DNA of 64,000 nt from Psammoneis japonica (taxonomy: Eukaryota), in NCBI GenBank assembly GCA_008632985.1, contig QPGO01000065.1, positions 124,001 to 188,000 on the forward strand, read 5' to 3'. Each line of letters starts with the position of its first letter. Position 1 is the first letter of the stretch. Both the position numbers and the translations under genes were made by a program. Below the pieces are notes generated by a model, which had not been told where the DNA came from, ran no database searches, and saw nothing but the letters and a program-made list of their open reading frames with translations. Positions 1 through 49,440 of the stretch are shown piece by piece.

Positions 1-37
1 TTCACTGTTCCGGCTGGGGGGAGGTCCTTCTGGCCAG

Positions 38-1660
38 GTGAAATGTTCGAGCCACTGCCAGTTGGTCTTCTCTTTCCGTTTGTTTCCTGCTGCCCTTGGC
101 AGCTTTGGGGAACCCCAAAAATGCATGCTGTGGACCGGTCCTTGCAACGAATGTGGCCGGACGCTGCGGTGGACGAAAGGCACATTCTGTGCAAATGTTG
201 TGCACAATGTGGGAATCTGGCCGGCATGTCGGAAGGTGTGGTGTCCAGGTTGTCATGCTTCGAGAAAAAGCACAACATTCCATCTGGGAGGGACCCTGAC
301 GGACGACCCTCAAAACGACGACGCCCAAATTCTCGGGGGTGACTGCCCATGGTTGGATGACAATGTTTGGTTTCGGAAGCCCCAGGACAAAAACAAGTTT
401 GTGCGTGCTCGGGTTGGAGACCATCTTGTGGTGGCATTTGAGTGCGATTCATGTGTCTTTCACAAGCTGTGCCAGAGGGAACCTGTGCCCACTTCACCTT
501 GAGACGAGGTTGCCCCAGCTTGTGTTCGGCGGGTTGTCTTGGATGCTTTTTGGAGCAGGGAGACCACTGTGGTTGAAGCGAATGCAGCAAAAGTTGGGCG
601 GGGCTTAACCCCATCTGAACGTCTGGGCCTGACGGGCCCTCACCTCGAACCAGGCCCGCTGCCGCCCCATGATCACTGTGGGTGCGAGGTCGTGATGCAG
701 ATCGTTTTAGCGTCGACGACTGCAGGGAAGCACTCGGAGTCGCATGCCCAATTTGATGCGATCCGAAAATTGCGCACTGCATGCTCGAATCAGGTGCGGG
801 CCTCTGCCCAGGCTAACTCACGAGCTTTGGCTTTGGGAGATTTGGAAGGAAAACAGTGTCTCCGGATGTGTGAAGACCCGCGCGCCTCACTTTGGTTCCA
901 ACGTTTTATGACCGGCTGCAAGAGATGGATGGGCCAAGACTGGAGACCCGACAGGGCGACATCAGTGGACATCATGCAACACCTCATGCCTCGGGTCGAG
1001 GAGAAGGCTCTCCGAGCCCCAGGGGAGGCTGATCGATTCATGTGCCTCACCTGTGGGTTGCACTTTGCGGCCAGCTACGTCTTGTCCCTCTGGGGCCCAG
1101 AAGGTCCACTCATGGACTTGGGCACACTGGCGACGCATCCACCAAGACATGCGGATTGTGCTGCAGTCCCTCTTTTGGGACGAGTGAAGGGAGAACACGG
1201 GGAGCGGCAGCACCTCCTCCCAAGTGTGAATGTGACTGGCTCAGGGATTGACCTTCGGTTTTGGGTGGAGACGGCAGCATCGTTGCACTGGGGTCGTCGA
1301 CGATCTCGCGGACCAGCCATGTCAGATGTGGACGGCAAAGTCTTGTCCACAAAAGACCTCAACACTTTTCTGCATGAAGTGCTGGGAGACATCTATGATG
1401 ACCACCCAAGCTTGTTCGCAGCTGACATCACCTCTGTTGCTGACACACAGGATAAATGCGACGTGAGCCGCTCGTTCCAGAGGGGATCTGACTCTCGCGC
1501 CATCGCTCAAAAGGCACCCGAAGATGACATCGACGTTGTCAACCATTGGAAAAGGAAGGAGAGGTCAGGGGCGGCCCGACCCACCCACAAAATGTGGCAA
1601 CACTGCGCCGACATTGCTCTTCTCTTGCCTTCGTTCCTGCAATGCACCAAGGCCATGTGA
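38..1660 (+). pseudogene. Tyrosine recombinase of the retroelement, inactivated
   Basis: ORFs 38-502 and 539-1660 are in the same frame, split by a TGA. Cys-rich N-terminus (CRKVWCPGC; GDHLVVAFECDSC). YR-like boxes: 'SLWGPEG' (R box), 'GRVKGE', 'SRSFQRG' (HSxRxG-like), 'NHW', and 'MWQHCAD', where the catalytic Tyr position reads Cys. Confidence 0.75.
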
Positions 1661-1774
1661 TTTGGGACGACCACAAGCCCTTGGTGTCTTTAGACTCCCG
1701 GAGAGCAGACTTCCATCTCCCTGCTCTCTGGTTCGATTTTTGGGGTGGCCACCACCCAGGATTCTCATCGGGGG

Positions 1775-2223
1775 GGATTGGAGCTCGGCCCGTCTCATTC
1801 GGCCTCGGGAGTCGATGAGACGAGGTCCAAGATTGCCGAGTGGCACAAGACCTTCGACGGCTTTAGTTTTCGTGCGGGAAAACTTGGTCTGGCGTGTCTT
1901 CGTTCGAGTTGGCCATTTGCTCTCAAAATTGCACCCAACGTTGCGAAATGCCAAAGGGAACAATTCTCGAGATTGGTCCTCGAAAACGCCCAAGGTGCCG
2001 CTGCCAGATCGGCTTTTCATGAGAGCCCCTGCATTGCTGCAGGACCCTGCGGAGGGTTTGGTTGTTTCCCATCCCCCCTTGCACGGAGCAGAGCTTGCAC
2101 CGGAAGCTTTACTCTGTGAGTCTCCCAAGCATCTTAATGAGTTGTCACTTCTTGGTGGTTCTTGACTGTGATCATCCAAGATCTAGTCCGCAGTGGCAGG
2201 TTGCAGAGTCTGTGCTCGGATCC
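1775..2223 (+). repeat. Direct repeat copy 1 (B1) of YR retroelement
   Basis: Aligns by eye over its length with 2484-2919. Confidence 0.9.
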
Positions 2224-2483
2224 TCCTCGCACCCAAGTTTAGATGGAGACGGACTGACTAGACTCAACCTCGCCCGATGACTGTGACCTCTCGCCTGATC
2301 CATTTCGGAAGTTGGGGACTTCCGGCTCAAGATCACCCAGTCAGTTTTCCGACTGTGACCGGTCTAACTTCGGTTTTCTCTTCTCCACTTTTCCAGCTTG
2401 ATTGGAGCAGGAACCCTGATCAACGTGACTGGATCACACAAGCCCAGAAAAGCAGTGTTCTTTTTACCCACCCACCACACCCA

Positions 2484-2919
2484 GGATTAGAGCTCGGCCC
2501 ATCTCATTCGGCCTCGGGAGTCGATGAGACGAGGTCCAAGATTGCCGAGTGGCACAAGACCTTCGACGGCTTTGGTTTTCGCGCGGGAAAACTTGGTCTG
2601 GCGTGTCTTCGTTCGAGTTGGCCATTTGCTCTCAAAATTGTACCCAACGTCGCGAAATGCCAAAGGGAACAATTCTCGAGATTGGTCCTTGAAAATGCCC
2701 AAGATCGGCTTTTCACAAGAGCCCCTGCATTGCTGCAGGACCCTGCGGAGGGTTTGGTTGTTTCCCATCCCCCCTTGTGCGGAGTGGAGCTTGCACCGGA
2801 AGCTCTACTCTATGAGTCTCCCAAGCATCTTAATGAGTTGTTACTTCTTAGTGGTTCTTGACTGTGATCATCCGAGATCTAGTCCGTAGCGGCAGGTTGC
2901 AGAGTCTATACTCGGATCC
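2484..2919 (+). repeat. Direct repeat copy 2 (B2) of YR retroelement
   Basis: Aligns with 1775-2223 apart from a short deletion; retains more TA sites than copy 1. Confidence 0.9.
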
Positions 2920-3212
2920 ACCCGAACATTTTTTTCACAGACAAACACGCTCACCGTTCTCGCGCGGAAACCGCTGTGCCCCAAATAGTGGCCATGTGTC
3001 AAAGGGTTATCTTCAGTTAGTCACGTTTCAAATTTGAAACTTGCTACCGAAGGTCGTACGTAGAATTCTACAAAGATTAAAGAATTGATATCCAGATTGA
3101 AGAAATTATATTATCATGAACAACGCACGATTGGCGATTGACACAAAACTTGAAAACGACTGAGCACGACACAACAGAAAAACGAAGACGACTTGTAGTC
3201 GTACGGCAGACA

Positions 3213-4486
3213 ATGGCCAAGGATTCCAAGCCACAGAGCAAGCCACGGAGAAAGAAGAAGACTAAAAAGGAGAGAGAAACGGCTGCGGAGATTGCCCGGG
3301 TAAAGAAGAATGCGACGAACACGCGATACAGACAGAGAGTGAAGAAAAAAAAAGAAGCGGCGGCCATGGCTGCTGCGTACGCCGCTATCTACGGACACTC
3401 TCAACGCCCTGCTGGTGATGGGCGGCCGCCGGCTTTTCCGGTCTCTGCTCCTCGACCGGCAATCGCCGCTTCTTACGGACATTCTCCATACCACGCTGGT
3501 GGTGGGCGGCCTCCAGTTTTGCCGATCTTAGCTCCTCGACCGACAATCGCCGTTCATGACGGATATTCTCCATACCCCGCTGGTGGTGGGCGGCCTCCGG
3601 TTTTGCCGCTCTTCGTTCCTCAGCCGGCAATCGCCGTTCATGACGGATATTATCCATACCCCGCTGGTGGTGGGCGGCCTCCGGTTTTGCCGCTCTTCGT
3701 TCCTCAGCCGGCAATCGCCGTTCATGACGGATATTATCCATACCCCGCTGGTGATGGGCGGCCTCCAGCTTTGCCGTTCTACGCTCATCAGTCGCCGCAA
3801 GTGAACACGACAGGCCGTCTTGGCACGCCTGTACCACCCGGTTCACCGGCGTTATCGGCGTCATCGGCCGACGTTATTGCAATGGCGAGTAACTTCGTGG
3901 ATACCGTCAACAACTTCGTCCTTTATGCCCGCGAGTGAGTCATTTCTGTGACTTGTGTTGCTTTGCTGTTATTTTCTGTCGATGTCTCTGACTGTTTTAT
4001 GCTTTTCGCGATGTGTTGTTCTTTCCACAATACAGCCTTGATCTGCCACAAAGTGTTGTGGTGCCGGTGGCTCAGCCTTTTGCCGCCGCCGCAAACCAGT
4101 CCAACAATTCTGGGCTGGCTTTTGGCGTGCCGAATACGTCGACTGGATCTGGTGGGACTGTGGTGGCCCCTCCTGCGGCAAATCAGCAGCCGCCTGCTCC
4201 TTTTGGTGGGACTATCGTGGCCCCTCCTCCTGTGGCTACTGATCTTTTTGGTGCTGCTGTTGCGGCCCCTCCTCCTGTGGCTACTGATCCTTTTGGTGGT
4301 ACTATGACGGCCCCTTCTGCGGCTAATCAGCCCCCGCCTGCTCCTTCGGGCTTCGGGGTCACAAACAATGCGCCACCGCCAGTTGCCGAAAGCGTCGTCA
4401 ACGACACAAACGGCTGCGTCATGTCTTATGGTGCCGGCGCTGGTGGGGCGGCTGTTTTACCTTCTGGTGCAATGGACAACAAGTAG
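3213..4486 (+). CDS. Two-exon hypothetical low-complexity protein (basic N-terminus, 28-aa Pro/Gly/Tyr repeats, PPAPFGG-type tail); exons 3213-3934 and 4036-4486
   Basis: GTGAGT donor at 3935 and ...TACAG acceptor at 4035 join ORF 3138-3938 in frame to ORF 4013-4486. The same intron position is conserved in the paralogues at ~11.9 kb and ~41.4 kb. Confidence 0.55.
3388..3790 (+). repeat. 84-bp coding tandem repeat, ~5 units
   Basis: 'cgttcatgacggatatt' recurs at 3551, 3635 and 3719; protein unit YPYPAGGGRPPVLPLFVPQPAIAVHDGY. Confidence 0.9.
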
Positions 4487-5682
4487 TGGCTATAACACGG
4501 GAGACACGACAACGTGCATCATATATGGGTATTGCTATTTTGAAATTGTTACTTCTACAAACACCATAGAAGCTAAAAAATACTAGACCTAGATTTTATG
4601 AAAGACTGAGACGCAGCTAGTTGCAACGTGTGATCCTTTGTTCGGACGAAACGCACAGTTTATAATAAAGGTGGTGACTACGACACAGCCAAGAGAATGT
4701 CTTACGCGAAAAGAGAAGTGAAACATCCTCATCAGCCCATACCTGAGGTATCTGCATGTCTGAATTGTCCATCTGAGAAGGTCTACATTAAAATATTTAT
4801 GTGCTTCTCCTCGGAGGTATGGAATAAATTGTAGGGCCGTACGCACAAATCCGTTTGTTGGATGGAGAACATTCTTGGGGATGTTCACGATCTGGAAGAT
4901 AGACAAGGAAGACGAATCAATCACTCAGCCAGCTGCGAGTAAGCATGTTTTCATGAACGGTAGATCGATCGACCCGACACGTTCTCACGTGCTTCCTCTT
5001 TTCGCAGTCCATGCTTTCATGAACGCTGCATGCATAGGTAGTTCACTAGCCGCCGCCCTGTCCATTGCCGCGTTGCTGCCATACATGAATGGCTCGTAAG
5101 TAGTAGCCATTCACGCGGTGGCGCGGCTATCTATACGCCTAACTCATTTGACCTCTTCGACGACATAGAACAAAGAGTGTTCCGGCTTGCACCTGCATGG
5201 CATCAATAAGCAGAGAAAGGCATTCTTCGGCGGACAACGAAGCATAAATAATGAAACTACCCGCTAGCGACGAATCAATCTTGGGACATTCCGAATACAA
5301 ATCCAGCTTACCACGTTGTTGCGATCACGGCTGTGAAATATTGATGGTTTTCTCACGGCTTATGGCGTCGCCACCCGTTTGGAATCAATTTCCATTTTCA
5401 ATTTCCATTGGTTTGGATGATGCTCTGGGAGAAGTAGTTGGAGTAGAACTTGTCGTATTGCTACGACTCAGTGTCGTTTTTGCTCTCGGAGTTGGAGCAT
5501 ATCCTTGCTGTTGGCGTAACCCGTGTGTTGCGTGCACGGCCTGCGTTAGGCCGTCGAAGACGAGGTGGAGTAGACGAAACGAGTAGAGTGACGAATTCTT
5601 TATGTGCTTGTGTTGCAATTGAAATGTAACAGAAACACAAAGATCGTCTAGAGTGTTGGAAGGTAAAGCGAGAGCTTGTTGG

Positions 5683-5712
5683 CAACAACAACAACAACAA
5701 CAACAACAACAA
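5683..5712 (+). repeat. (CAA)10 microsatellite
   Basis: Directly visible. Confidence 0.95.
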
Positions 5713-24570: not shown

Positions 24571-26256
24571 AGGAGCGCTCCGTCTTCAAATTGCACTATT
24601 CATCGGTAGCGAAGGCCGGTAATTTTGTCGTTGCGTTATGTGTGTTGTCTTGGCGGTGTTGATTCTGCTGTCTGTATAATTAGCGGCGCTCATTGCTTCC
24701 GGCATTTTACTACCAACACTGGCCACAAGAGACTCCAGACTCTCACCATGATTTGTTATGGCGTCGAATCGCTACTTTTACTCGTTTCTTGTTGCTTCGC
24801 TTTCGCTTTTTCATTGCGATCCTGTCTCTTAATGAGCTGGATGCTTGTTTCAGACTGGACGCCGCACTTATACAGACGCATCAGTATTGAGGCTCGCAGC
24901 TTATCAAGTTCTTGAACACATGGACATCGACTTCGTTGACTATTGTTGAAAGAATGGAGGAATTATGGATTGACTTGTACGAGAGAGGCTAAGTTGAAAT
25001 CAGAGACGTGGGACTCATGCAAGCATGGTTGCAAGCTCTCGTCGAGAGTGGATACGAGTTTCCCTAAGTCACTCGCTCCCGGCATCCAAACATTGTCCTC
25101 ATGCGTGAGTTTAACTTTGCCAAAGGTTCCAAGAATGCACCATTTTGGGATCAGAAATGGCGGGAAGTCTTTCCAAACATCGTCATACGTTGTCCCTTTA
25201 GCGGTGAACAGATTGGTGATTTGCACTCCCCTTGTATACAGGCGATAGCAAGCAGCGCCAATGATCGTCGAACCGAATCGCTATGGGCTGGGCAATCAAA
25301 GACGTACTGCAAAAGACGATTCATCTGAACAATGACGAACTCGGAGGAAGTTAGCGACAAGACCCAAGCCAAAATCTATTTCCTGCAACGGATGAGAATT
25401 TTGCTCCACGAGGCACTCAAAGATGAGAACTACATGGATAACTGCTACGCTAATTCTGACAAGATTCGAAACATTTGGTGGCACCGATAGTATTCCACTT
25501 CGGGAAGAGGTTGTTGGGTTGTATCCGATTGGGGTGCAACGAAGGAACTGTGAAAAGCAAGGGAAAAGAATGTGTCAAGGAAGCATATGAGAGTATCATG
25601 GGGAACAAGGATTTGGAGAAAGCTTTTCTCAAGTGCTTCGAGAGTGACAACTCAATTACCACGGACGACAAGCTCAAAGTATACAAGCAGCTTATTTCGA
25701 AGACAGCTCAGGGCACACTGAATTAATCTCACGTATTGGGCAGTGCCCCTGACCCCACTTTCACCCCAGATTGTCAAAATGTGTAAAACACCCCTGTTTT
25801 GTAAAACGCCCTCTAGAGAGTAACGAACAAGCAGCGGCTTGGGTCGTCATGGTGCTTTCGACAGTCGAGTGAGTCGTCGAGCAGTTTTTGCTGTTTGCGC
25901 ATTCAAATCGCGCGCACTGCACAGTGAATGTTCACTTCCGGGTTCCTTCTGGTTTTGTTTCGACCTCAAACATGACCGACGACTGACCGACGAATGCTCG
26001 AAAAAGCCTGCTACGTAGGATCCTACGTAAGACATAGGGTAATGAGCCAAAATGTGTGTTTTACACGACGAAGCACGTGAAAGGCCCTTTGCGTGGTTTT
26101 GCCACAAAACTCAGGCTCTCAGCTCTCACAGCTTGTGCACTTCAATTTAAGTTTGCACTTGACAGATTGAAGGCTGACTTTCAGCAATCAGGTGTCAGGT
26201 TCTGCTGTGTCACACTGTGCCTGTGAGCAGCAGTGCCAAGAGGTTGTTTGGCAGCC

Positions 26257-26452
26257 TGACAGAATGCCGAAGGTCGACAGTGACAGAGGCATGAAAGACT
26301 CCCCAAAGTGCTAGGACTGTGATGACATGAGTGCTAGTAGAAGAGAAAGTGAGAGGCAGATCTCAGAGAGATCTGCTCGTGTCCACCCAAATGGTCCAGC
26401 CATCATCCGCGTCCAGTCTGTCCATCATGCGACAGGTGCAGATGGGCTGACA
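26257..26452 (-). repeat. 3' LTR
   Basis: Direct repeat of 33288-33483; preceded on the minus strand by polypurine tract AGGGGAGGG (26453-26461). Confidence 0.95.
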
Positions 26453-26658
26453 CCCTCCCCTGATCTGCAACATCTCAACATGTAGAACAGTGCAGATCAA
26501 ACCAAAGAACAGGGATGATGTGAGGGAAAAAAAAACAGAGAGACTAGACATGGGACACGACAAGTGTCCATGCCCAGTGCGCCATCAAACAAGGGGGCAG
26601 TGCGCAGCAGGGAGGCCACCGCGGAAAAAAAACATCAACAGCAGTGTCCCATCATGCG

Positions 26659-29600
26659 TCAAGTGTGGCGAGCGTGCAGCACCCAGCCAAGGGCCTTGGC
26701 AAGGTCATTGCTGGGGTTGACAATGCCTGGAGTGTGTCTTGTGACAATCTTGCCCGCTTCCTTCCATTCTTGAATCGCAAAAAACTGGATCTCAACATGA
26801 CGGGATCGCTCGGTCGGGATCGAGTGATTGATGATCTTGATTGCCGATTCGTTGTCAATGTATGACGGGGTTGGCGTCGTCTGAGGGAAGCCTGGGTCTT
26901 GTAGAACGTGACGAAGGCACAGGACATGCTTGGCAGCAGTTCCAGCAGCACAAAATTCAGCTTCTGTAGAGCTCGCAGCGGTCACCGATTGGGTCTTGCA
27001 CCGAAAAGATGTGGCAGCACCAGCTAACATGCAAGCACAGCCAGTCGTAGAACGACAGTTGCGGAGGTCATTGCCATGAGCAGCATCCAAGAAAGCAACG
27101 AGTTGATGGTCATGTTCCGGAAAAGGGAACGATGGTGAGGTCTGGTCCGGAGTGAGACGTTCGAAGGGGCAGGCAGGCAGTTTTGAGTCTCGGGTGGGCT
27201 TCTTGCAGTTCAATTCCCAATGCCCAGTGCGTCAAAGGCACTTGCACATGCCCTTGAGTGTGTCACAGTGAACCAAAGCAGGACAGGTAGAGAACTTGGA
27301 GAGAGCAGTGATGGCATGCCCAACATCCAGTCGACATGCAACGCACGCACACAACAATTCGCCAAGAAGAGTGCGGCAGCCAAAACCAGCAGCTTGTTGT
27401 AGCTCCGCATGCTCCGGGGTTCCTTCAGCTGGGCCAACAGTGTCGCACAGTTCGCGAACAGATTCAACAGGGAGTGGCACAGCCTTGCAGTCATCGTCGA
27501 GTTCCTCGTCCGTCGGTGTCAACCAACCATGCGAGGCACAAACCCGATCCACACAGCTGTGAACAGCAATGCCAATGGAGTCATCACATTGATGAACATC
27601 CACACCATTGAATTCTTCAATCATGCCAAGACACTTGAACGGCGGAGAGGTTTCCGATTCCAATTGGAGAGCTTTGCCAATCTTGTCGTAGATCTTGACC
27701 GCAATGGACTCTTCAGGACAAGCGAGAGAGAAATCATCAACCTGACAGAGAAGCAAGATCTTGTGTCCTTCAAAAGCAGCAGAGCAGACACATTTGTCGT
27801 GTGAGCAGTGTTGCGAAAAAGCAGGTTCACATCAGACAAAATGCCGTTGATGTGCGTCTCCCAGAGCACACCGGCTTCTGGGTGTCCTTGGAGTGCATGT
27901 TGCATCGGAAGTGCCACGGTCCTGTCCAAGTCAACACCAAATCGAGCCTTGCACCAGGTCGCGTGTGCCTCATCTACAGCAACACACACGGGATGTGACG
28001 GTCGTGGAGAGTGTGCACAGGCATCACGAGCATCCCCACCAAAGACAGGATGGCTCATGGTCACAGCAAGGGCAAAAAACATGCGTTGGATGGGTTGCTC
28101 GACACAGGATGAGTGCGTCGAGTAGAGACGATGTAGCATCAACGCAGCACGGGGAGATCCATCGCAGCACTGTCAAGAGCGCCGTGTGCCATCACACTTG
28201 AGGTCATGTTGCCAATGCGGACGAAGTGCGATGGCATCCTTGGGTCGTTTAATCGGTGCACCAAACATCCCCAACTCATGGAACTGGTCAAGTTGTTTAA
28301 ATTCACCTGTGTGCCATTCGGGCCACGTGTCCAACTTCTTGAGATGATGGCGGGTGAAAGCACCTGAGGCTTGTTCCTCTGGAGTGACAGCGTGGGATGA
28401 TGTGGCACAGACATTGACTGTGCCATTGTCATGATCAACAAAGAACGGCGGATTGACATCATCGTCATCCGCATCGGAGAAATCAACATCGGGGTGGCGG
28501 ATGGCAGCAATGGCACGCATGTCGGCGTTGGTGATTTCCGGAACATGCTCATCATCAGGATCAGGAGTCGGTGCATGCACGTTGTGTTCCATCAGAGCAT
28601 GTTGTAGAGCTTGAGAGTCCAGGTGACGTTCCGGCGCGAATTCAATTTCAAAATGAGTCTTGCCAGAATCACAGACTTGCTGAAAACGGTTGACAGCCTC
28701 CTCTGCCATGAAGATGGGATGATCATCAATCGATGCGACATGCGCACCCTTGATCTTGTTGCGGGTGGCCTTCAAAGAAGAGAAAAGACGCGCAGCAGGA
28801 GAAGCACGCTTGACATCAGAGACAAATGCTCGCAGACAGAGATCGTCCGTAGCCAAGGAAAGTCCAAACGTGGGATCAGCAAATGTTCCCTTCATCGTGT
28901 GCTCAATGGTCTTGGCAAAAGGATTCCCATGAAAGTGAAATTCATCCATTGTGGTTTCTTCAGTCTCGGCAGGTAAAGCCTTGCCATCTTGAGTGCGTTC
29001 CAAGTGAACCACATTCGGCGGAAGAGAGTCGTGGGGAAGATCATTCATGCCCTCATCACAGCGAATGTGCTTGGCAAGCTTGACACGCGATGTCTCAGTG
29101 TCACGCCAAAGAATGTTCTTGGCAGTGTCCGGAAGACAGCCTGAGAATGTGCCCTTGCAAGAGACAGACCAAAATTTCGCTGGGCGGTGATTCGACGCAC
29201 GCACCCACACTCGACAACCAAATGCACGAAAGTTCTTGAAATCATCCTTCCGACCAGCAGCGAGAGCAATCGGAGCAGCAGGTTGTCCGCGGGATGGTGT
29301 GGCATTGTTGATTCAAATGAAATGATGAAAAGCATGGGGCCAGAATTTTGTGGGCAAATCGGCACCGATTGGCATCGCCCAGATGGCGTTGGCAACAGAC
29401 AAATGACTGAGTTCCACTGGGCCACTCTGATTTGAAGCATCTTTTCCCGTAGGACGAATTGCACAATGGAAGTCATCCTCGAAGAGTCGCCGAACTTCTG
29501 GGTTTTGATGCAATTCACCTCCTTGATCCACAAATGCACATTTGTCTGGACATTTTGGCAAGTGCTCTTCCAGAAAGTGGCGAAGCCAATTCAAAGGGGT

Positions 29601-32600
29601 TGCCTTGGAGACACGAGTCGCGCCATGGAGACACTTCATTTTATGATCGTAAACAGCAATCCAACAAGTCTCGCCATTCAATCCAACATGGTCCTTGGTG
29701 CACTCTGAGTTCTTGGAGCGCAGGCCAGAGAAGGAAAAGTCAATCGTAAGGCCTTGGTGTGGCTGGGTGGCAGCAAGAGTGGTGTTCGGACCGGCAGGTT
29801 CCTTCGTCTGCTTTGCTCGTGTGCATGTGGGACAAGTGTTGAGAGGAGAAGTTCCGTGGGCAAACTTGGGGACGCCATCAACATGTTCATGGGCATGACA
29901 AAGGCAGTGATCACTTGGATGACCAAGGCGCTGATGCCATAAAAGACGTTCCGTGTCGGCCTTGAGGGACTGGACAGGAATGTTCTTCTCAGCATGCTTC
30001 TCAAAAGGAATGTCTTGACAGACATGGGGGATCAACTTGCGTTCATGACGAAGAGCGTCATGTTGGTGGGTGCGACAAGTCTCAATCACACACGTAGCGA
30101 CCTCTTCACACTCATCGGCAAAAGCAGGATCACTGGTCTTGAGGCGCTCAACAGATGCATCCAGTGCGTCGTTAGATTCCGGGAGAATGAGAGGGTGAGC
30201 AAAACATTTTCCATTGATCAATTTCCCATGAACAATGACATCCTGACTCTTGCGCAATCGGTGTCGTGCAACAAACTTGCAGGTGCCAAGATCATGGAAC
30301 TTGAGAATGCAGTCGACATTGCAATCTGTGCGACAAGCACCATTTTGACGGAGCAGGAGTCGCTCATCGACCAACGTAGATTGGATCTGCAGGTGGTGGC
30401 ATGCACGAACCTCAACATGTCCGGCAGAGTTCTCTGCAAGAATCCGCAGGCATCCGAAACCAACTGGAGTGGCTTGGTGGCCAAGAGCCGGGTTGACGGC
30501 AAGGGGACAGGGATGGGATGGGGTGAAGTCTTGGCAGCAATGGAGGAGGTCACGGTCGCCTGCACATGCAATGTCAGCACCAGCATCCAATTGAGCACAA
30601 CGTTCATTCGGAGCAAAGTTTGCGCCATTGACAGAACAAGTGGAGCGCAGCAGTTCCGGCTCAGGTGAGTGACTCGCCTGGTGTGGATCGATTGGAGTGA
30701 CACGAACAGAATTGATGGCAGCAAAACCGTCTTCAACAGCCATGTCATCACAGGTGAGATCAACACATTCCTCAAAAACCGGTGTTTCTGGGTCTTCCCT
30801 CCCCTGTTCCAAAGGATCCGGAGCATGAGCAGCATCGACGGAGGCTTCTGGAGGAGCAGGGTCATCATTGGGTGACGTGTCAGTGTCAAATGACATCTTC
30901 GTGGAGGTGGAAGGGGTGGCATCCATGTCAATCTGTGAGGAAAGAGGCATTTCAGCGGCAGATGACGAGACGGTTAGTCCCTCTTTCAAGGTCATCCCGC
31001 TGAGATTAGTCTTGTCTCGGTGAGGAGACAACGGGCAGTGTCGGAGATCCGAAACTGGCTGCGACGGCCCAATTGAAAATCCGAGGGCAGAGCACTAGAC
31101 GGAGGTGGATTTTCAGGGTTGTCATGATGGGGTGGGAGTAAACCTTGGGGGGTCCTTGGAACTCGGAAGCACGCACAGCTGCTTCCGATTTTAAAAATTG
31201 ACAAAAACGGATGTGGAATCCCTTGATGCACGGGTCATTGTTCAGGATGGGACAGTCATCAAATGAATGCTCTCCGGAGCAGACAAGACATGGTTTCTTG
31301 GAGGCTTCATGCGGAGTGACTTTCAGTTCATAGACTGAAGCCGAGCACACATGGTGAAGAATTCGATCTTCGTCCGTTGATGGGATCTTGAGTTTGTGTG
31401 ATTCGTCGCAAAGAGCATCAAAGGTGTCCGGATGTGGGGATTCTGCACCAGGATCTTCAGTGGCAGAGTCATCAACTGGTGCATGAATGGGTGTCTCAGG
31501 GATCTGGAGAGAGTTGACATTGGCAGGTGTGTGTCACGCAGGAGCATCTGCTTGATTCCATGTACGGCATGGATTGGATTGCGTCACACGAGTGGCAAGG
31601 GATGGACTGTCCGGTTGGCGGAGGAAATCAGAGAGAGTCTCGACAATCTGTGCATCCGTGTGCTTCTTCTGCATGGCTGGAGACTTCCGTTCATCTCTGG
31701 CAGCACGTGACAAGAACTTGGAGCACTCAGTGTTCTTGATGAAGATGGTCATCTCCCATGGATCATTCAACGTAGAGTCTGTGTCAAAAATGCAGGCACG
31801 CAGCTGCAGGAAATCATTGAAGATCATGTGGCAGTCCGTCAATGATCGATTGCCTTGGACAGGATGGGAATCAACAAGTCCAGCAGCATCGTGATCAAAG
31901 GCAGGATGATTCTCGTGGATGATCTGCTTGAGAGCCTTGCATCCGTTGCCATGGCATGATGCAACAATCCGATGATGCTTGCTGTTCTTGGGGAACACAT
32001 CTGACTTGGATGGGATCTTGTGGAGAGAGCTCTGGGCTTCCTTGCAGTGGACGTACATGCGCTGGGGCAAGTCGTCATCTTTGCCGTTTCCAATCTTGAA
32101 GCCTTTCTCACCACCGTGGTCCTTGGCAAAACACCACAATGGATGTGTGTGGCACCCTGAATCAAAGGCATGACGTTGGAAATTTTGGTGCCATGCACGC
32201 ATCCCAGGAGGAGAGTCGTCATGACATGCAGGAGGTTCCCTGAACAGCATTTTCTGATCAGGAGTCGAGCTCATGATGAAAAGGGCACCATTGTCAAGGA
32301 TGATGCGATCGGATGCATCAATGCAGTGACGGAATCCATGGTCGCAAGGGACGAGAGAGCTCTGGAGAGCAACTTCACTGTCTTCTTTGCGGTCTCAGCA
32401 TTCACGAACATCTTTTGGCAGCGTGTTCGGATTGAAGAGGTGTTTCGATGTAACGGAGGATGTGTCACTTCCAGATGACTTGGCAGAAGCTGTAGAAGGT
32501 GGAGCATGGCTCGACGCGTGTGCATTGAGTGCAGTGACCAAGTCAGTCACGGTCAATGCAGCAGGTCCTGCAGTTTTCTGAGAAGAAGACGGAGGCTGCT

Positions 32601-32985
32601 GTTTCTTCTGGCAGGGTGCAAGAGAGAACTCGTTCCAATTGCGATAGTTCCACATCATGTCCGGATCAACATGCATGTGTTGGGTAGACATGGCAATGAA
32701 CAGAGATTGTCCACTGTTCTGAAGATTCGTCTTGATCATCTTTGATGAGATCGGAGTCGTCAGGCGGACTGGACGAGGCCGTTGAGGGTCAAGAAGTCTG
32801 AACGGGGCTTGATCCATAATCGTCTTGATTGATTCTATGTCCGTGGGATCAGCTGTGTAAGGTGGAAACGCTTCGTGGATGAAGCAATCACGAAGCATGT
32901 CCGCGAAATCTTTCTTGGGTTGTGTGTGCTCTGGGTCGTCAAAAAAAAGGGTCCAGATCAGTTGTGGAGTCCGCACAAATCGCAT
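26659..32985 (-). pseudogene. Fragmented gag-pol polyprotein
   Basis: Zn knuckle CLVCSGEHSFDDC; protease QLDAGA; 'LWHQRLGHPS...CPTC' and integrase core (IDFS, VDQGGE, GPVE); RT 'ALQGHPE', 'QVDDF'; RNase H 'DAAHGND..RSTTG..SSTEAE..DNESA..RSRHVEI'. Multiple stops and frameshifts. Confidence 0.93.
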
Positions 32986-33277
32986 TCAGGCAATTGTGGA
33001 GATGTGGCGTCGTTGTGTGTGCCTCGAATTCGCAGCGGATCTCTGTGACGGACGACAGAGCGGGCTTTGTGGTGTCGGAAGACGCCATGGTTTTAGTGGG
33101 TGGAGCCATTTTTGGTCATGCACACGCAGAAATCTGGCATGTTTCTACGACCGTGAAAAATGCCAGGAAAGCGAGATAAAAAGTTGTCTGATCAGACGAT
33201 GAGGCTCGCTCAATCAGCTCACAAAACAAATGAATCAAAATAGAAAGCTTGGCGCAGAGGTCTGTGGCACAGCGCAA

Positions 33278-33287
33278 GGCCACAACC
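33278..33287 (-). promoter_or_regulatory. Primer-binding site of the Copia element
   Basis: GGTTGTGGCC directly follows the 5' LTR. It resembles the GGTTATG(G/A)GCC tRNA-iMet half-molecule PBS of copia-type elements, with TA read as TG. Confidence 0.65.
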
Positions 33288-33483
33288 TGACAGAATGCCG
33301 AAGGTCGACAGTGACAGAGGTGTGAAAGACTCCCCAAAGCACTGGGACTGTGACAACACAAGTGCCAGCAGAAGAGAAAGTGAGAGGCAGATCTCAGAGA
33401 GATCTGCTCGTCTGTCCAAATGGTCCAGCCATCATCCGCATCCAGTCTGCCTGTCATGCGAGACAGGTGCAGACAGGCTGACA
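33288..33483 (-). repeat. 5' LTR
   Basis: Direct repeat of 26257-26452, followed by the TSD. Confidence 0.95.
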
Positions 33484-34654
33484 CAGCCAAGCAGCCAGCT
33501 CTCTGTGAAAAATGGTTGCAAAAGGAAAGGATCTGCCTGCTGCAACACAAGTGACAAGCAATCAAGAGTGCATTTTCCTGTGGTTTGGTGTCAAAGAAAA
33601 TGTGCTTGTTTGTGGTGCGCTGTGCTGGCAAGACCAGCTGCGAGGCACAGCCCAGCCAGCCATGCAGCCACCGCCAGCACAGTGGGTGCTGGCCTCCTCT
33701 CATGATGTTGGCATTGGGCCACATCATGCAGCTGTGCCACTGCAGTCAAATGGCATTTCTGCCAGCTCTGCATGAAAAAATGATTGCAAAAGGAAAGAAG
33801 CCATCTGCGGTGCAAGAGACAAGCAGCCGCCAAGCTCCCCATGGTGGTGGGCTGCTTGAAGTGCTGCAGCAGCTGTGCTCTGTGCTGGCCATCCAACAGA
33901 GATGAGTGGACCGCAATGTTGGCTGCAAGATGAAAGGACTGTGTTGGTCACAACTGGCACCAAACAAGTGCGGGAAATTTTCCTTTCATCCAAGGAAATT
34001 TGGGAGCTGCTGAGAGAGGAGCCCCCCATGACCCAAAACCCCGCTCATGCTCACATCTTGATTTCCCCCTCATTGGCTTGTTGAATGAAGAAAACAAAGA
34101 GGCTTTCCTCTTTTGTTTTGTTGCACAATGTGCGCCAGATTTGCCACACCAATTTGAGCTTTTGTGGGCTTGCTTGGAGCAGATCACACTTTTGAAGAGA
34201 CCATGGAAGCACATCTTTTTGTCCTTGAGAAAGTGCCTCCCAATGGTGTCTGCCTCACTCATTGAGTGCATTGCACAAAAAGATGTGTTTTGGCAGCCAC
34301 AGGCTCTGTGCAAATCAACTTCTAGATGAAAGGTTCATGACGGTTGCAACCACGCATTGAATCACCAATTGTTTTTTCCTTTTCTTGTTTTCTCATGTTT
34401 CCTTGTCTAGGAAATTCAGCGCCAAATGAGGAATTCCCTGTGATCGAAAACCTGCAATGATGCGGTGATTGGCATGTTGACAATGATTCCGTTTGTGGCA
34501 TCGCTGTCAAATTTGCACTGGAAAACCATGTGGGTTTCTACTTGTCGCTGTCAAAATGGAATTGTGTCATTGTCAAATTCTGCACAAACCCTGGTGCATT
34601 TCCCACACAGTTCCCAAAGAGCCACCTGCGCAGCTGGACGATTGCCTGTTTTAC

Positions 34655-35822
34655 GTGACACTGCAAATTGCCAAACACTTGTCACTCTTTGCACACAAAG
34701 TGCGTTCGATCGCTCTGAAGAGGAAATTTTTCATTCATTGTTCGTTTGCACCAGGCCACGTGGAATTCTGCAGAAACTCCCTCTGACGTTTCACCCGCGC
34801 TTCTCTCAAAACAACACGCGACAATGCGGGGAACACCGTCGGCAGTTTGCGACAACTTTCCCTCTCTAACAAAAGAACAGAAATGACAGCATTTGTGCAC
34901 AGGAATTGTTGACACCTTCAGCACAATGTTGACAGCAAGGAGTTGCAGGATGCAGGATGCAGGATGCTGCTGTGTGAGAACAGCACTGCAAAACAAGACA
35001 ACAATGTTTGGCATGGCAAACACAGCTGTGCCGAAAATCAAACGCCCATCAATGACAAGCACTCCATTTGGTCATTCAACAATGCCACCTTCATTCCTAG
35101 ATCTGTCACCTGCAAAGCCAAATTGAAATTTCTGCTGTCTTCTTCGCATTGTGCCATTGAGAGCCGACAGCGAGTCACTTGCTCTGCTGGTGCAGAGAAT
35201 GTTTTCATGTTTGCACTGCATGCAACACATTCAATGTCTCCATCAGTGGCGCGCAACTCTTCCTTCCAGCATGTCCATCACGCACACTTTTGCTCCATTT
35301 CTCTCTTGCGCGAGCCATTTGTGGCCCTCTCATCACCTCGAATGTCCACACTGCAACACCAAATGTTCAACATTCAAACAACATTCACCAGCTTTGGTTG
35401 ATGAAAGATCAATTGAGCCTCAACGCCACTGAACAAAGGCAAACACCATGCGACATGCCAGCTGGGATGTCAAAACAGTGCAGACAGAGAACAAATGTGA
35501 GCGAAAGCACCAGCGGAAACAATGCAAGCAACAAAGCTCTCTTTTGTTGCCATTGAGAGCGCACTGAAACACGGGAGAGTTGTGAAAATTGGCAGAGTCG
35601 ATGACGATGGGCACCGCCATTGTCGGACACATCTCCTCGTGCTTCACCCCGTGTTGTGGTTGGTGGTTGGAGAGAGGAGTCGGAAAGCAGCAAGACTTTG
35701 CGCTGTAATTTTCTACGTGGCCTGGCACAAGCGAGCCAATGAAAGGAAATTTTCCTCTTCAGGGTGATCGAAGGCGCTTCACATGCGAAAAGTGACGAGT
35801 GTTTGGCAATTTGTGGTGACAC
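34655..35822. mobile_element. ~1.17-kb segment bounded by ~120-bp imperfect inverted repeats (possible non-autonomous DNA transposon)
   Basis: 34655-34773 is the reverse complement of 35703-35822; no transposase or clear TSD recognised. Confidence 0.45.
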
Positions 35823-37039
35823 ATGATTTTACGATTCCCCCCCTCCCCCCTTCACCGCGAAGGTTGCGCTCAACACGTGAGATTAATTTAGCATGCCCTG
35901 TCACGCAAGATTCAGGGCTGTTGCAGACAAGTGCAAAGAGGACAAGACAGGGCATCATGCAAAAGGCCAGTCAGACGTTGCACTCCAACAGAATCTCAGA
36001 GCTCAAGTCAAAAAGTCAAGCGTCAAGGTCACAAGCAACTCACAAACATGCTCTGTTTGATCACCCCCAGTTGGTTTCTCTAAAACGCTCTCTGCTCCAG
36101 ATTGCCCTGTCCACTTGGAGGGGTTTGGGTTGCTTGCAGCGAAGACTTCCACTTGAAAAGGCACTCAAGCCCACAAGAAAGTGGGGCCCCATGCCGATCA
36201 TGTGCATGCATCAGAGGCAGCAATGTGGTGGTTTCCACTTTCTTTTGTAAAATTTTGAGTGTGCATTGTTAAAATTGTCAACAAGCAGAACTTGAAAAAA
36301 TGCCGGCAAAAGTGCTTGACAAAATGAAGCTGTTTTTTGCATTTTATCTGATGTCTCATTGACTTTTCTTGCACAAGCTTCAATCAAATGCATGCAATGT
36401 TTAATTTAACTGGGGTTAAAATCTGTTTTTTGTTGTGCATGGTTTGGTTTCCTTTTGATCGTAATCAATTTGAACTTGGTTTTAACTTTGTCCTCCTCAC
36501 TCACGTGTGTGTCTTTGCACGTGTGCAGTCTGCAGCACTTCACGCACGCGCACATGACCCACCTTCATTTTTCTTCACTTTTGCACAGCCCGTTGGTCTA
36601 CGGCATTTTCAGCATGTGTTTTGCACGTGCAATTTTCTGCACATTTCACAACAGTGCACCCTCTCCCCAAAGTTTGAAAAACGAGAGCGCGTGCTGTTGT
36701 GACTCACGTGGATCCTGCGTGTGGTCGCAAATCTGCAAATCGACAACCGGCCATGGCGGTGAAAGACTTTGCCCCATTGGCCGATGACAGCAGCTCAATG
36801 CATGGTGACACCTGCCATCCTTCTGGTTGGTCAAGATGGGGTTTTATTTGGGTGCAGCTTGAATTTTGTGATCGCGAGTGTGCTGTCACGAATCTGCCGC
36901 ATCCAGAATGCTGAGCTGCTGGCGTGTTGTTGTGTGTTGTGTGCACGCACGTCACAAACTTGCTTTTCTGCAGCGTTGTCACAATCGCGCATGTCAGAGT
37001 TTTTCATCCAGAATCATCGTGAGTTGCCATGAATTGCAC

Positions 37040-38150
37040 TGTCCAAACAAGGCATGCACAAAAAGAGGTTCGTTGGTTTTTGACACATTTGCCAACAACA
37101 CATCCGTCTTCTCCAATTTCTGTGTCCAGACCCAGAAAGACTGCAGGCGGTGCTTGTTCCTGCAGCTCTCAGAATCTCACATGTGAAAAGTTCTTTGCCA
37201 TGTGTGACACTCTTCAAAAAAGGCATGCACAAAAAGAGCTTCATTTGTTTTTGATGTGTTCACTTGCGTTGCATCCATCTTCTCCAATTTCTGTGTCCAG
37301 ATCCAGAAAGACTGCAGAGGTGGAGAGTGGGGAGGCAACCCATTGGAGGTTGCCTGAGTTGTTGGGCTCATTTTTAAAGGCTTCCCAAGTCTCTCCGCTG
37401 TTTGTGGTCAAGAGCAGCAGGGGGGGTCGACTGCAACAACCGCGGCAGCTGCCAATTCCATGTCGATGGGTCGGGAACTGGCAGCAGAAGCTCCCGAATC
37501 GGCGGCGGCGGTGGATGCACCTGCAAGTCTACGTTGAGGTTTCAATTGGTTGCTGTTGTTGTCCCGTGCACTCTCACAAAGTGTTTTGCATTTCTTTGCA
37601 CTGAACAAGGTGGATCAGAGCAATGTTGCTTCACATGGTCCTGAATCGGCTTCGAGGGGTCGGGAACCGGCGGCAGAAGCGACCAAATTGGCCACGGCAG
37701 ATGCACCAGTGAGTCCATGTTGCGGTTTCAATTGGTTGCTGTTGTTGTCCTGTGCACTCTCACAAAGCATTTTGCACTTCTTTGCAATGAACAAGGTGGA
37801 TCAGAGCAGCGTCACTTCACCTGGTCCGGAATCAGCAGCGCTGGATGCACAGGCAAGTCCATGCATTGACGTCTCCATTGGCTGTGGTTGGCTCATCTTT
37901 GTCATGCTCTCACAACGTTTTCTGCACCGTTCGACAATGAATGAGGTGGCTGCCAGTGCTGGCAGTGGCTCTTCAAGAAAGAGAACTGCAGCAGCTGCTA
38001 CAAACTCGCCTGCTCCAGAATCGGCGGCACCAGATGCACCGGCAAGTCCATGTTGCTGTTCCTGTTGGTGGTGTCAGTTCATCCACATTGTGCTCTCACA
38101 ACGCATTCTGCACTTTTTTGGCAATGAACAAGGTGGCTGCAAGCAGTGGC
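37040..38150 (+). repeat. Tandemly duplicated exon-intron units of a degenerate gene
   Basis: Four related intron-like units start at 37523, 37709, 37853 and 38042, most ending ...tgaacaag|gtgg. Two other related units start at ~37050 and ~37220. Confidence 0.65.
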
Positions 38151-48500: not shown

Positions 48501-49409
48501 TGCTTTCCATCATTGCTTTTGAGTTTTTGGTGAATCATTGTTGTCATGATGTTGAACAATTTCTTTAAATTTCTGTTTGTCAATTGTTTCTTTCTGAATC
48601 TTTGCACACAGTGGAATTCCATGACCCTTGGCAGCAATGTTCAAATTTGAAACATGACTGAAGACAACAGATTTGTGCAGAGTGACATCACTTCCCAAAC
48701 CTCATTGGCCCAACTCAAAAGTTCCCAGTTTAGCATGAAAAACAGCATGTTGCACTTTGATGTGTCTCAACAATGGCAAAAATTGTTGGGTGAATGCAGC
48801 TTTTGTGGGGGGTCTTTTTCTGTTGTTGTCATGGAGAGGTTGGTGCATTGGTTTGGCTGGTTTTCTGTTTTGACATGCTGTGGTGCAACCGCAGTGTGCC
48901 TTGACTCATGACTCAATTATTTCACAGTGCACATGACATCTGAACAGTCCACAATGTTGCCAAGATGTGCATTTTCCTTGAGCAATGAAGCAGTCATTGA
49001 CGGTGCACTCAGTTGTTCCACAGTGTGTTGTTGTTTTTTAGAGTTGGTGTCCAGTGGAGTTGCAACGGCGTTGGATTGATCTGCCACTGCATCGGGGGAC
49101 GGGGGGTTGTGTTGACCACAGGCACTGTGTGCATGGGCAGCTCTCTGCACTGTTGAGTGGTGCATCCATTGTGTGGTGAGAATCTTTGAGGCAATTGGGG
49201 TGTTTAAGGCAACTGGCCTCCTGCCAAACAAGAGGACAAGCAAAGGCTCAAGCACTTTGGATGATGTCAAAAAGGATCAAATGCCAAAGAGTGGCAAACT
49301 TGGCAAGTGCTGCATTTGTGCAGTCATTTGCTGCCTCTCTTGTCATGCAGGTGCAGCGGTGGTTGCTGGTTGGCCAACAACTCAAGACCAAAAGCAGTGA
49401 ACAGAGAGT

Positions 49410-49411
<2 letters not shown>

Positions 49412-49440
<29 letters not shown>

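Follow-up and report, generated by a model that had tools for sequence, protein, structure and literature searches.

Repeat-induced point mutation (RIP), the textbook case of genome defence by mutation, is fungal (Neurospora and other fungi): it converts CpA to TpA, enriching TA and creating stops, and it is triggered by homology, with both copies hit. In animals, APOBEC and ADAR edit retroelements as cDNA or RNA before integration, and the resulting changes are strand-asymmetric. The mirror image of RIP, in which TA is erased and not created, has one experimental report, from a chlorarachniophyte. According to the main text of that preprint, integrated giant-virus and virophage DNA of Bigelowiella natans undergoes TpA-restricted hypermutation at a measured de novo rate ~1000-fold over background, active in some lines only, and its long-term footprint is TpA-poor and CpA- and TpG-rich, including RT- and DDE-type coding sequences (Mettrop et al., bioRxiv 10.64898/2026.01.13.699255). 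The literature on diatoms yielded no description of the signature, and the B. natans preprint (2026) was the only description found.

The window analysed here, a 64,000 nt stretch of the Psammoneis japonica genome (GCA_008632985.1, contig QPGO01000065.1, positions 124,001 to 188,000), is another case of B. natans-type TpA hypermutation and resolves the signature to single sites in a diatom. In particular, its left end very probably carries a dead Ngaro-like tyrosine-recombinase (YR) retrotransposon of the diatom nuclear genome that was hit after insertion by domain-restricted TpA to TpG or CpA hypermutation. As in B. natans, in the preprint's account, the changes are exclusively A:T to G:C at TpA, fall on either strand and lie in local regions of foreign DNA. 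The two cases differ in their hosts (a stramenopile here, a rhizarian there), in their targets (retrotransposons and a host-gene duplicate here, viral inserts in the preprint) and in the depth of erasure (TA o/e of 0.02-0.13 here, a Rho of 0.45 given for their NCLDV region). Further, variable CpG erosion accompanies the erasure here; the base 3' of the target matters here, whereas the words 'context', 'flanking' and 'trinucleotide' do not occur in the preprint's main text; and activity is deduced from sequence here, whereas the preprint reports it as measured.

Like RIP, the process acts after insertion at the DNA level through dinucleotide-specific transitions, inactivates transposons and leaves blocks with sharp borders. 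Unlike RIP, it runs in the opposite direction and depletes TA, it left a 91% identical 3.5-kb duplicate untouched, and it mutated only one member of a paralogue pair. As with APOBEC and ADAR editing, a genome preserves the trace of a deaminase-type hypermutation that is context-specific and strikes retroelements; in contrast to those two, it hit both strands, flanks and host-derived DNA after integration.

Architecture of the element at the left end

Positions 1-2922 of the window are the 3′ end of a YR retrotransposon of the three-ORF type with a probable B1-A2-B2 repeat tail (Table 1), in agreement with the initial annotation, which had called it a YR retroelement; the three-ORF relatives and the recombinase fold of the family both bear this out. 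The A1 repeat, ORF1 and most of ORF2 fall beyond the window edge. The remaining end of ORF2 matches metagenome relatives at their own ORF2 C-termini (L006, E = 5e-21; L013, E = 3e-19) and stops at the same point, and the 552-codon ORF3, interrupted by one in-frame TGA at 500-502, is frameshifted into the pol end. The same overlap, ~200-370 nt long, is present in 18 listed relatives, which carry three ORFs, namely a gag-like ORF1, a pol ORF2 with motifs of RT and RNase H and, overlapping it, the YR ORF; the ORF1/ORF2 boundary is one in-frame stop in 14/14 relatives checked. Two relatives illustrate the repeats: L077 has an A1...B1-A2-B2 arrangement, visible over no more than 127-bp assembly overlaps, and in L013 A1 and A2 are identical over 456/456 bp.

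Table 1. Features of the window, by position, with strand and basis
Feature	Position	Strand	Basis
Pol-like ORF2, last 113 codons	1..342	+	Frame 1; cut by window edge; BLASTP to relatives
Degenerate tyrosine-recombinase ORF3	2..1660	+	Frame 2; 88 relatives, E down to 7e-120
Trp (TGG) in first catalytic Arg column	1091..1093	+	Arg in 65/65 relatives
Gln (CAG) in second catalytic Arg column, RSFRRG motif	1478..1480	+	Arg in 63/65 relatives
Cys (TGC) at presumed nucleophile Tyr, QHY motif (QHCAD here)	1604..1606	+	Relatives' alignments
Cys (TGC) at second conserved C-terminal Tyr, FLRYT	1643..1645	+	Tyr in 63/65 relatives
Inner direct repeat B1	1775..2226	.	Self-comparison of window
Spacer, putative A2 of an A1-ORFs-B1-A2-B2 element	2227..2483	.	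Position only
Outer direct repeat B2, element's end	2484..2922	.	Self-comparison of window
Spared B2 terminal segment	2806..2922	.	9 TAs, baseline TA density, fTA profile
Unmutated paralogue of 48659-47145 (inverted), the 'before' copy	3019..4744	+	Duplicate alignment
Second TA-erased block	26150..40380	.	Holds minus-strand Copia relic
Copia LTRs	26252-26453 (near block edge), 33283-33484 (inside)	.	LTR comparison
Third TA-erased block	47560..56020	.	Strongly CG-depleted too; its leftmost 1.1 kb comes from a duplicated host gene

Several lines of evidence converge weakly on ORF2 being a reverse transcriptase. The ORF2s of relatives are 1250-1650 aa long with YVDD- and DAS/TDNS-type motifs; RVT_1 matches 3/12 of them below the cut-off (best E = 0.0085) and is found in 17/30 of the nearest named Atlas clusters. 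A low-confidence model of the RT-RH core (12-row alignment, pLDDT 55.8) has HIV-1 RT as its top Foldseek match (E = 3e-3), with RTs and RNase HI mixed among G proteins and ribosome factors, and a search of the ORF2 profile against PDB sequences returned nothing meaningful.

Ngaro-type elements of the DIRS order, as outlined in the source (PMC3783388), encode Gag and pol (RT/RH) together with a YR ORF that overlaps pol in a shifted frame, and their repeats stand in A-pol-B-A-B order. The relatives share this ORF layout and, as that outline has it for Ngaro, a Dam-like methyltransferase domain is absent from their ORF2s (0/12). They differ from it in sub-threshold matches to Phage_integrase and RVT_1, in an N-terminal Cys-rich module (FECDxC) of the YR and in the single in-frame stop separating ORF1 from ORF2. 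The window element is probably Ngaro-like, a placement made by ORF and repeat layout.

Tyrosine loss from the recombinase ORF

The ORF3 family belongs to the tyrosine recombinases as judged from a predicted structure, being recognised by fold only. Pfam assigned no family to the window ORF at E up to 1, Phage_integrase (PF00589) stays below threshold throughout this YR lineage, as does RVT_1, and the family profile retrieved from PDB sequences only one unrelated chain (E = 0.042). The fold was tested on the relative P0016, ~49% identical to the window copy, whose model (pLDDT 87) has the two-domain YR / topoisomerase IB catalytic fold. Its top Foldseek matches are XerH and Cre, the remainder being chiefly Cre together with Tn1549 and lambda integrases and XerD; its VIA Z-scores to Cre, Xer and integrases are 13-15 (rmsd 3-5 Å, 170-250 aligned residues), and Z is at least 8 for 85 chains.

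The six catalytic columns, which follow the R-K-(H/R)xxR-(H/W)-Y order of the superfamily, are nearly invariant in the relatives (R 65/65, K 65/65, R 65/65, R 63/65, W 65/65, Y 63/65) and read W, K, R, Q, W and C in the window copy, so that its ORF3 is an inactive relic. The presumed nucleophile had been annotated as Cys and indeed is: the column holds Tyr in 26/26 relatives of a first alignment and 63/65 of a larger one, where the two exceptions are one D and one C. In the P0016 model, the stretches that align with Flp, XerD and lambda Int place the nucleophile at about residue 400-406, beside Y403.

Tyrosine loss extends over the whole ORF. Only two Tyr are left (0.36%; the relatives have a median of 3.05%), and none of six conserved Tyr is kept (five Cys, one His) compared with 95/107 of the remaining conserved residues (Fisher p = 7e-6). 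Since Tyr is encoded by TA-Y, every conserved Tyr, the nucleophile included, became Cys or His; TpA erasure cannot give rise to TAA or TAG, and for this reason the ORF is still nearly uninterrupted. Ordinary CpG transitions removed two catalytic Arg as well. The initial annotation had proposed that the process efficiently disables Tyr-dependent enzymes: the loss of Tyr is systematic, as it held, but follows from the TA-Y target and does not reveal a purpose, and catalytic Arg were lost too. Two public relatives, P0041 and P0073, are also Tyr-poor; their DNA lies outside the 80-locus metagenome set.

Limits and timing of the erased domains

Within the window, TA erasure occupies three blocks only, whose edges span 20-150 bp. 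The direct repeats of the element straddle one such edge. Aside from a 13-bp indel, the inner repeat and the outer repeat differ by 23 transitions and no transversions (1775-2222 against 2484-2918), corresponding to 19 changes at YpR dinucleotides and one other transition; the lone transversion is at the extreme repeat end (2224/2920). By comparison, a control repeat pair beyond the blocks (16828-17308 against 19332-19809) has 19 differences, of which nine are transversions and two are at YpR. The mutation rate between the two repeats is ~900-fold background, a ratio that is an order of magnitude only, as it rests on one background change.

The YpR changes comprise eight sites with TA in the outer and TG or CA in the inner repeat, one in the reverse direction (1864/2573), three CA-versus-TG swaps (2020/2716, 2082/2778 and 2089/2785) and seven sites with CG in one copy (inner 3, outer 4) and TG or CA in the other. 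The 8:1 asymmetry (binomial p = 0.039) is what the initial annotation had counted, and the reciprocal swaps and all of its quoted examples are present on alignment. The comparison presumes that B1 and B2 of an A-B-A-B element become identical at each transposition, and the 8 + 1 sites are polarised only indirectly.

The annotation's 'edge gradient' is an abrupt step within the outer repeat; its excess of outer TA stands and its gradual shape does not. Erasure ends between 2786 and 2806, ~115-135 bp inside the element, where the last mutated sites (2778 and 2785) are followed by the first kept TA (2806). The last 117 bp hold 6/8 of the outer-only TAs, and of the detectable TAs there the outer copy kept 9/9 and the inner copy 3/9; upstream of the step, B1 and B2 are equally mutated (two TAs kept in the outer, one in the inner, and all three swaps). 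TA retention in the outer copy is therefore 9/9 beyond the step versus 2/6 upstream (Fisher p = 0.011): the outer repeat keeps TAs lost from the inner one because the mutated domain ends inside it. The Copia relic of block 2 repeats the trend claimed for it, with three TA-versus-TG/CA sites that all keep TA in the LTR near the block edge, none in reverse, and seven swaps; pooled with B1/B2, the asymmetry is 11:1 (p = 0.006).

Block 3 enters a duplicated host gene for 1.1 kb, and block edges in general do not track element ends. Of the TA sites of the unmutated paralogue, 0/14 are still TA within the block and 11/14 are TG or CA, with CG kept at 1/30 sites; in the part of the pair beyond the block, TA is kept at 12/19 and CG at 10/14 sites. 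The right flank of the element has no homology to the far end of this inverted duplication upstream of ~3019. Further, a 3.5-kb duplicate (5842-9328 / 47014-43565, 91% identity) is unmutated in both copies, so targeting is not driven by homology, and the targeting unit is probably a chromatin-like domain.

The mutations postdate insertion. The two LTRs of a Copia start out identical when it integrates. Those of the relic, and likewise the repeats of the YR element, differ almost exclusively at YpR; in addition, a duplicate of a host gene is mutated, and the intact relative L013 retains its identical A1 and A2. It is accordingly very improbable, and largely refuted, that an ADAR- or ADAT-like activity edited the RNA or cDNA and that the copy arrived hypermutated. 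Such editing would fit a retroelement target, the five of six lost Tyr that became Cys through sense-strand A to G changes and the excess of TG over CA in block 1 (257 and 207); both product types are nevertheless abundant, block edges mismatch element ends, the end of the outer repeat is unmutated where its inner twin is mutated, the Copia LTRs differ at TA-derived sites, and the 1.1 kb of host gene, which is no retroelement, is equally erased. The preference of ADAR for a U on the 5′ side of its target A, which the preprint discusses, would also suit this explanation (bioRxiv 10.64898/2026.01.13.699255).

Composition, context and chemistry

Across the window, blocks differ from non-blocks in TA (x0.14), CG (x0.51), CA (x1.47) and TG (x1.39), and the 12 remaining dinucleotides are nearly constant (0.93-1.08; AA, AT and TT 0.99-1.08). 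In block 1, TA is 0.042 of all YpR, against 0.17-0.18 outside, and CG remains at its baseline share (0.243), so that TA was lost without net loss of CG. Erasure is near saturation, with a TA o/e of 0.08-0.10 in block 1. TA is the ancestral state and TG or CA the derived one: every one of 80 metagenome relatives has a TA/YpR of at least 0.09 (median 0.179).

The extent of erasure varies with the base that follows the A, in the order T > C > G > A. TA survival is 1.4% at RTAY, 14% with mixed flanks and 31% at YTAR, a pattern that holds in each of the three blocks under the presumption that ancestral flank usage was similar inside and outside them, and CG survival is flat over the same flank classes (0.51-0.67). 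A model with only the +1 base (hits: T 2.6, C 1.6, G 0.7, A 0.2) fits ten flank classes and agrees with product polarity at 15 sites, disagrees at five and ties at six. A separate effect of the -2 base is dispensable, since that base pairs with the +1 base of the opposite strand.

In its palindromic form the RTAY preference is reminiscent of methyltransferase targets, and it could point to an assembly or base-calling artefact, in which modified TA-Y in silenced DNA is misread as G or C and the true sequence is TA. This is even less probable than editing before integration: independent miscalls on two strands should also make CG, yet CG is halved; RTAY sites are 99% converted; the mutated paralogue has indels and other substitutions as well; and the B. 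natans signature was, in the preprint's description, measured as real mutations with Illumina reads (bioRxiv 10.64898/2026.01.13.699255). Slighter still is the chance that the outer repeat gained TA by C-to-T change at CpA/TpG (RIP-like, or deamination of non-CpG 5mC): any single TA-versus-TG/CA difference is symmetric when taken without an outgroup, but TA in 2801-2922 is at baseline and not higher, TA o/e is depressed over the whole block, the Tyr columns and the paralogue pair both give TA to TG/CA, and RIP would raise TA and make stops. Equally slight is the chance of a passive composition (a family trait, anti-TA selection, GC-biased gene conversion or repair of the polymerase eta type, which targets WA), where biased gene conversion would yield an A:T to G:C bias, but relatives are not TA-poor, AA, AT and TT are unchanged, edges are sharp and block 1 lost TA without net CG loss.

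The preferred reading is hypermutation of integrated DNA that turns TpA into TpG or CpA on both strands, acts fastest where A precedes T or C and was accompanied by ordinary CpG decay. Its chemistry is probably enzymatic adenine deamination; thymine oxidation is a viable alternative, attack on adenine or on thymine being indistinguishable from sequence. More tentatively, a diatom DNA editor may be guided to silenced chromatin domains and not to repeats in themselves; there it would rewrite 5′-TA-Y on both strands at ~1000x background with ~20-bp borders and kill mobile elements by missense, through loss of Tyr and with no stop codons made. The locus adds constraints in that the substrate is integrated double-stranded DNA, the target is set by position and not by homology, erasure stops within ~20 bp, at a point other than the element's end, and the 3′ base of the adenine matters. 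If the reading is true, its occurrence in a rhizarian as well as in a stramenopile would imply that the SAR lineage has long had this system of genome defence, and the TA-Y fingerprint would narrow the enzyme search to TadA/ADAT-like adenine deaminases or thymine-modifying oxygenases.

The claim that three unrelated TE classes were hit did not hold: two are verified, in addition to the duplicated host-gene segment. In blocks 2 and 3, Pfam (57/72 ORFs of at least 110 aa, E up to 0.05) found two Copia domains only. The longest ORF of block 3 (53837-55147) has no relative among longer proteins and 0 matches in a library of 1.84 billion proteins. TA-erased DNA loses TAA and TAG stops together with all Tyr codons, and so both acquires long spurious ORFs and hides transposon proteins from profile searches; ORF 53837-55147 is probably one such spurious frame, left open by the loss of TAA and TAG.

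Loss of TpA in three blocks

The window contains three blocks in which TA dinucleotides have been erased (see the table). The observed-to-expected ratios of TA per kb are 0.08, 0.10 and 0.35 in the first 3 kb, 0.02–0.28 at 26–40 kb and 0.03–0.11 at 48–56 kb, and 0.39–1.05 in 39 of the 41 1-kb bins outside those stretches; bins straddling block edges have ratios of 0.02 (39001–40000) and 0.44 (47001–48000). Relative to non-blocks, dinucleotide frequencies in the blocks are 0.14-fold for TA, 0.51-fold for CG, 1.47-fold for CA and 1.39-fold for TG, and 0.93- to 1.08-fold for the other 12 dinucleotides. In block 1, TA/(TA+CG+TG+CA) is 0.042 vs 0.17–0.18 outside, and the CG fraction of YpR sites is at its baseline (0.243; block 2, 0.158; block 3, 0.059), so that TA erasure is separable from CpG decay and is the faster process here.

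Coordinates of the blocks, the YR (tyrosine recombinase) element and associated features
Feature	Position	Strand	Detail
Block 1	1–2922		left end of the window; YR element up to 2922, TA erasure only up to 2786–2806
Block 2	26150–40380
Block 2 left edge			100–190 bp outside Copia LTR
Block 2 right edge	40383		within 50 bp
Copia LTRs	26252–26453; 33283–33484		near block 2 edge; inside block 2
Block 3	47560–56020
Block 3 left edge			gradual, about 150 bp wide; lies 1.1 kb into the host-gene duplicate
Block 3 right edge	55780; 56020		CG back near 55780, TA only near 56020 (about 240 bp later)
ORF2 C-terminus	1–342	+	frame 1; last 113 residues; E 5e-21 and 3e-19 to relatives
YR ORF	2–1660	+	frame 2; sole interruption TGA at 500–502
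R225 column	1091		TGG, Trp in window copy
R361 column	1478		CAG, Gln in window copy
Y403 column	1604		TGC, Cys in window copy
Y416 column (second conserved Tyr)	1643		TGC, Cys in window copy
Direct repeats 3′ of YR ORF	1775–2226 (inner); 2484–2922 (outer)		257 bp apart; one 13-bp indel
Inverted segmental duplication, host DNA	3019–12472; 48659–40737		67–91% identity by segment

The erasure depends on flanking sequence. When TA survival is normalized against every YpR site in matching flanks, it is 0 for ATAT, 0.01 for ATAC/GTAT, 0.03 for GTAC, 0.30 for CTAA/TTAG and 0.60 for TTAA, or 1.4%, 14% and 31% for the RTAY, mixed and YTAR classes; the class effect is present in each block alone (Fisher p 1e-4 to 3e-10), and CG survival, an internal control, is flat across flanks (0.51–0.67). 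Because the −2 base is the complement of the +1 base on the opposite strand, a model with only the 3′ neighbor of the A suffices, with fitted per-strand hits of 2.6 (T), 1.6 (C), 0.7 (G) and 0.2 (A). At polarized sites, the strand that was hit agrees with this ranking in 15 cases, disagrees in 5 and ties in 6 (p = 0.04).

TA is the ancestral state according to three lines of evidence: the conserved Tyr columns of the recombinase, the duplicated-segment pair and the relatives' loci. The right-hand copy of the inverted duplication reaches 1.1 kb into block 3, where the left copy's 14 TA sites are never TA in the right-hand copy and are TG/CA in 11 cases, and where 1 of its 30 CG sites is retained; immediately outside the block, the pair retains 12/19 TA and 10/14 CG sites. 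Further, none of the relatives' 80 loci is TA-poor to the degree of block 1. A Pro/Gly-rich gene segment also has extra copies inside the duplication (about 11300–12200 and 41000–41900).

The recombinase retroelement and its lost residues

The frame-2 ORF of block 1 has no Pfam match; it has 88 relatives (E down to 7e-120, about 50% identity). The structure of one relative (P0016), modelled from an alignment of 65 rows with pLDDT 87, retrieves XerH and Cre as the top Foldseek matches, followed by more Cre chains, Tn1549 integrase and lambda integrase, with VIA-align Z scores of 13–15 and Z of at least 8 for 85 chains. Residues R225, K264, R358, R361, W384 and Y403 are conserved in 63–65 of the 65 rows. 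When the model is aligned with Flp, XerD and lambda integrase, the matched ranges and the catalytic residue numbers of those enzymes would place the nucleophile at about residues 400–406 of the model, adjoining Y403 of the QHY motif.

The initial annotation had read the predicted catalytic Tyr as Cys (QHCAD), and its reading is borne out at the Y403 column. The loss of Tyr is systematic. Among the 113 columns with at least 80% agreement in 26 relatives, the window ORF retains 95. It keeps Arg at 11 of 16 columns, with W, W, Q, Q and H at the rest, and Tyr at none of six (five Cys, one His; Tyr vs all other residues, Fisher p = 7e-6). Its Tyr content is 2 of 552 codons (0.36%), and that of the 88 relatives is 0.97–4.01% (median 3.05%). 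Two of these relatives, P0041 and P0073, have Cys or His at 3/6 and 3/4 conserved Tyr columns and low Tyr contents (1.4% and 1.0%); judged by their protein sequences, they could be copies from elsewhere that were hypermutated in part.

A metagenome contig scan found 80 loci of the element family, which we read as a three-ORF YR retroelement. In 18 of the longer loci, the recombinase ORF is usually the third and last of three co-oriented ORFs, about 520–580 codons from stop to stop, and overlaps the end of ORF2 in a different frame. Because the first 342 nt of the window encode the end of ORF2, the window copy shares this overlapping layout. ORF1 (about 600–800 codons) and ORF2 (about 1250–1650 codons) share a frame with a single stop between them in 14 of 14 loci checked (L006, L010, L012, L013, L015, L019, L023, L024, L026, L028, L034, L037, L073 and L077; TGA in 13, TAG in one), an arrangement that suggests that gag-pol is expressed through stop-codon readthrough. 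When 12 ORF2s are aligned, YVDD-type, DAS...G and TDNS blocks appear, of the kinds usually seen in RT and RNase H. The database matches all point, weakly, in the same direction: RVT_1 matches 3 of the 12 ORF2s without reaching the cut-off (best E 0.0085) and occurs in 17 of the 30 nearest named Atlas clusters, and HIV-1 RT heads the Foldseek list of a low-confidence ORF2 model (pLDDT 55.8), amid unrelated rows. No Dam-like domain was found in the 12 ORF2s. Moreover, locus L077 shows A1...B1-A2-B2 overlaps, limited to 127 bp by the assembly, and in locus L013 a 456-bp 5′ segment recurs 3′ of the recombinase ORF at 100% identity; this repeat order would fit the A-pol-B-A-B order that defines Ngaro-type elements (PMC3783388).

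Block edges and the mutated unit

The initial annotation also proposed an edge gradient from the TA excess of the outer repeat. Its repeat-pair counts all hold, and the excess is real, but the boundary is a step rather than a gradient. In the last 117 bp (2806–2922), the outer copy retains 9/9 detectable TAs and the inner copy 3/9; in the first 322 bp, they retain two and one, with three swaps (outer-copy retention 9/9 vs 2/6, Fisher p = 0.011). TA density at 2801–2922 equals baseline. As the outer copy's final mutated sites are 2778 and 2785 and its first retained TA is at 2806, the step is at most about 20 bp wide and lies 115–135 bp inside the element. The TAs retained in the outer copy's end include fast contexts (CTAT twice, ATAC), and the three retained by the inner copy are in slow contexts (TTAC, TTAA and CTAG). 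Each swap is best explained by one ancestral TA that changed independently in the two copies; by our arithmetic, a per-copy CG loss of about 0.12 would yield about 0.2 swaps from CG. The promoter of a gene with its ATG near 3214 might explain why these 115 bp were spared. Overall, the annotation's observation was confirmed, and its interpretation is partly supported, standing for the YR element and the Tyr loss.

Comparing block edges with element ends indicates that what is mutated is a chromosomal stretch, not an element as such; we infer that the stretch is a chromatin domain. At the right edge of block 3, CG recovers ahead of TA, so the limits of CpG and TpA erosion are not identical. Just left of block 2, a 190-bp segment (25822–26011) has no TA and high CG, with a TA-rich 50 bp between it and the block.

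The process acted on integrated DNA, as indicated by the Copia LTR differences (3 TA-vs-TG/CA sites, 7 CA/TG swaps, 1 CG site, 3 other transitions and 0 transversions) and by a mutated paralogue that is host-derived and not a retroelement. It proceeds without a homology trigger: TA is at normal levels in both copies of the 91%-identical 3.5-kb part of the duplication (5842–9328/47014–43565). Outside any block, two 481-bp direct repeats (16828–17308/19332–19809, 95% identity) have an ordinary spectrum (19 differences, 9 transversions), and this pair is thus repeated DNA that was spared. Within block 3, a 95%-identical pair (49413–50045/51851–52496) has only two CA/TG swaps and looks, from its sequence, like a duplication of already mutated DNA.

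The P. japonica locus belongs to a kind known from one preprint. In that preprint, two viral inserts in B. natans mutation-accumulation lines acquired 230 of 231 changes as A:T to G:C, all of these at TpA, with an insert mutation rate about 1000-fold over background, and its authors propose an ADAT2-like deaminase (10.64898/2026.01.13.699255). Full-text searching of the literature found no diatom report of TpA hypermutation, this preprint being the sole description found. The locus adds three things in particular: a YR element as a target, a boundary step within a repeat, and confirmation of the dependence on context. The chemistry may be adenine deamination or thymine oxidation.

Coding consequences and host genes

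Tyr codons, being TAY, are the preferred target. TA erasure cannot create TAA or TAG, which can only be lost or changed to TGA; the relic YR ORF therefore carries one stop only. This loss of TAA and TAG inflates spurious ORFs inside the blocks: of the 27 ORFs in the window that span at least 200 codons from stop to stop, 16 lie in the blocks, whose share of the window is about 40%. For the longest block 3 ORF, searches of protein databases found no relatives.

The host gene at 58475–60529 (Hid1/dymeclin) has only diatoms among its best named relatives (Nitzschia, Pseudo-nitzschia, Epithemia, Mayamaea, Fistulifera and Phaeodactylum; 65–75% identity), from which we place the eukaryotic window in a diatom distinct from these species. 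The host ORF at 3120–3938 has no Pfam match; its N-terminus is very basic (KKKTKKERE...RQRVKKKK), and it contains 4–5 tandem 84-bp units at 3380–3799, coding for repeats like PYPAGGGRPPVLP.
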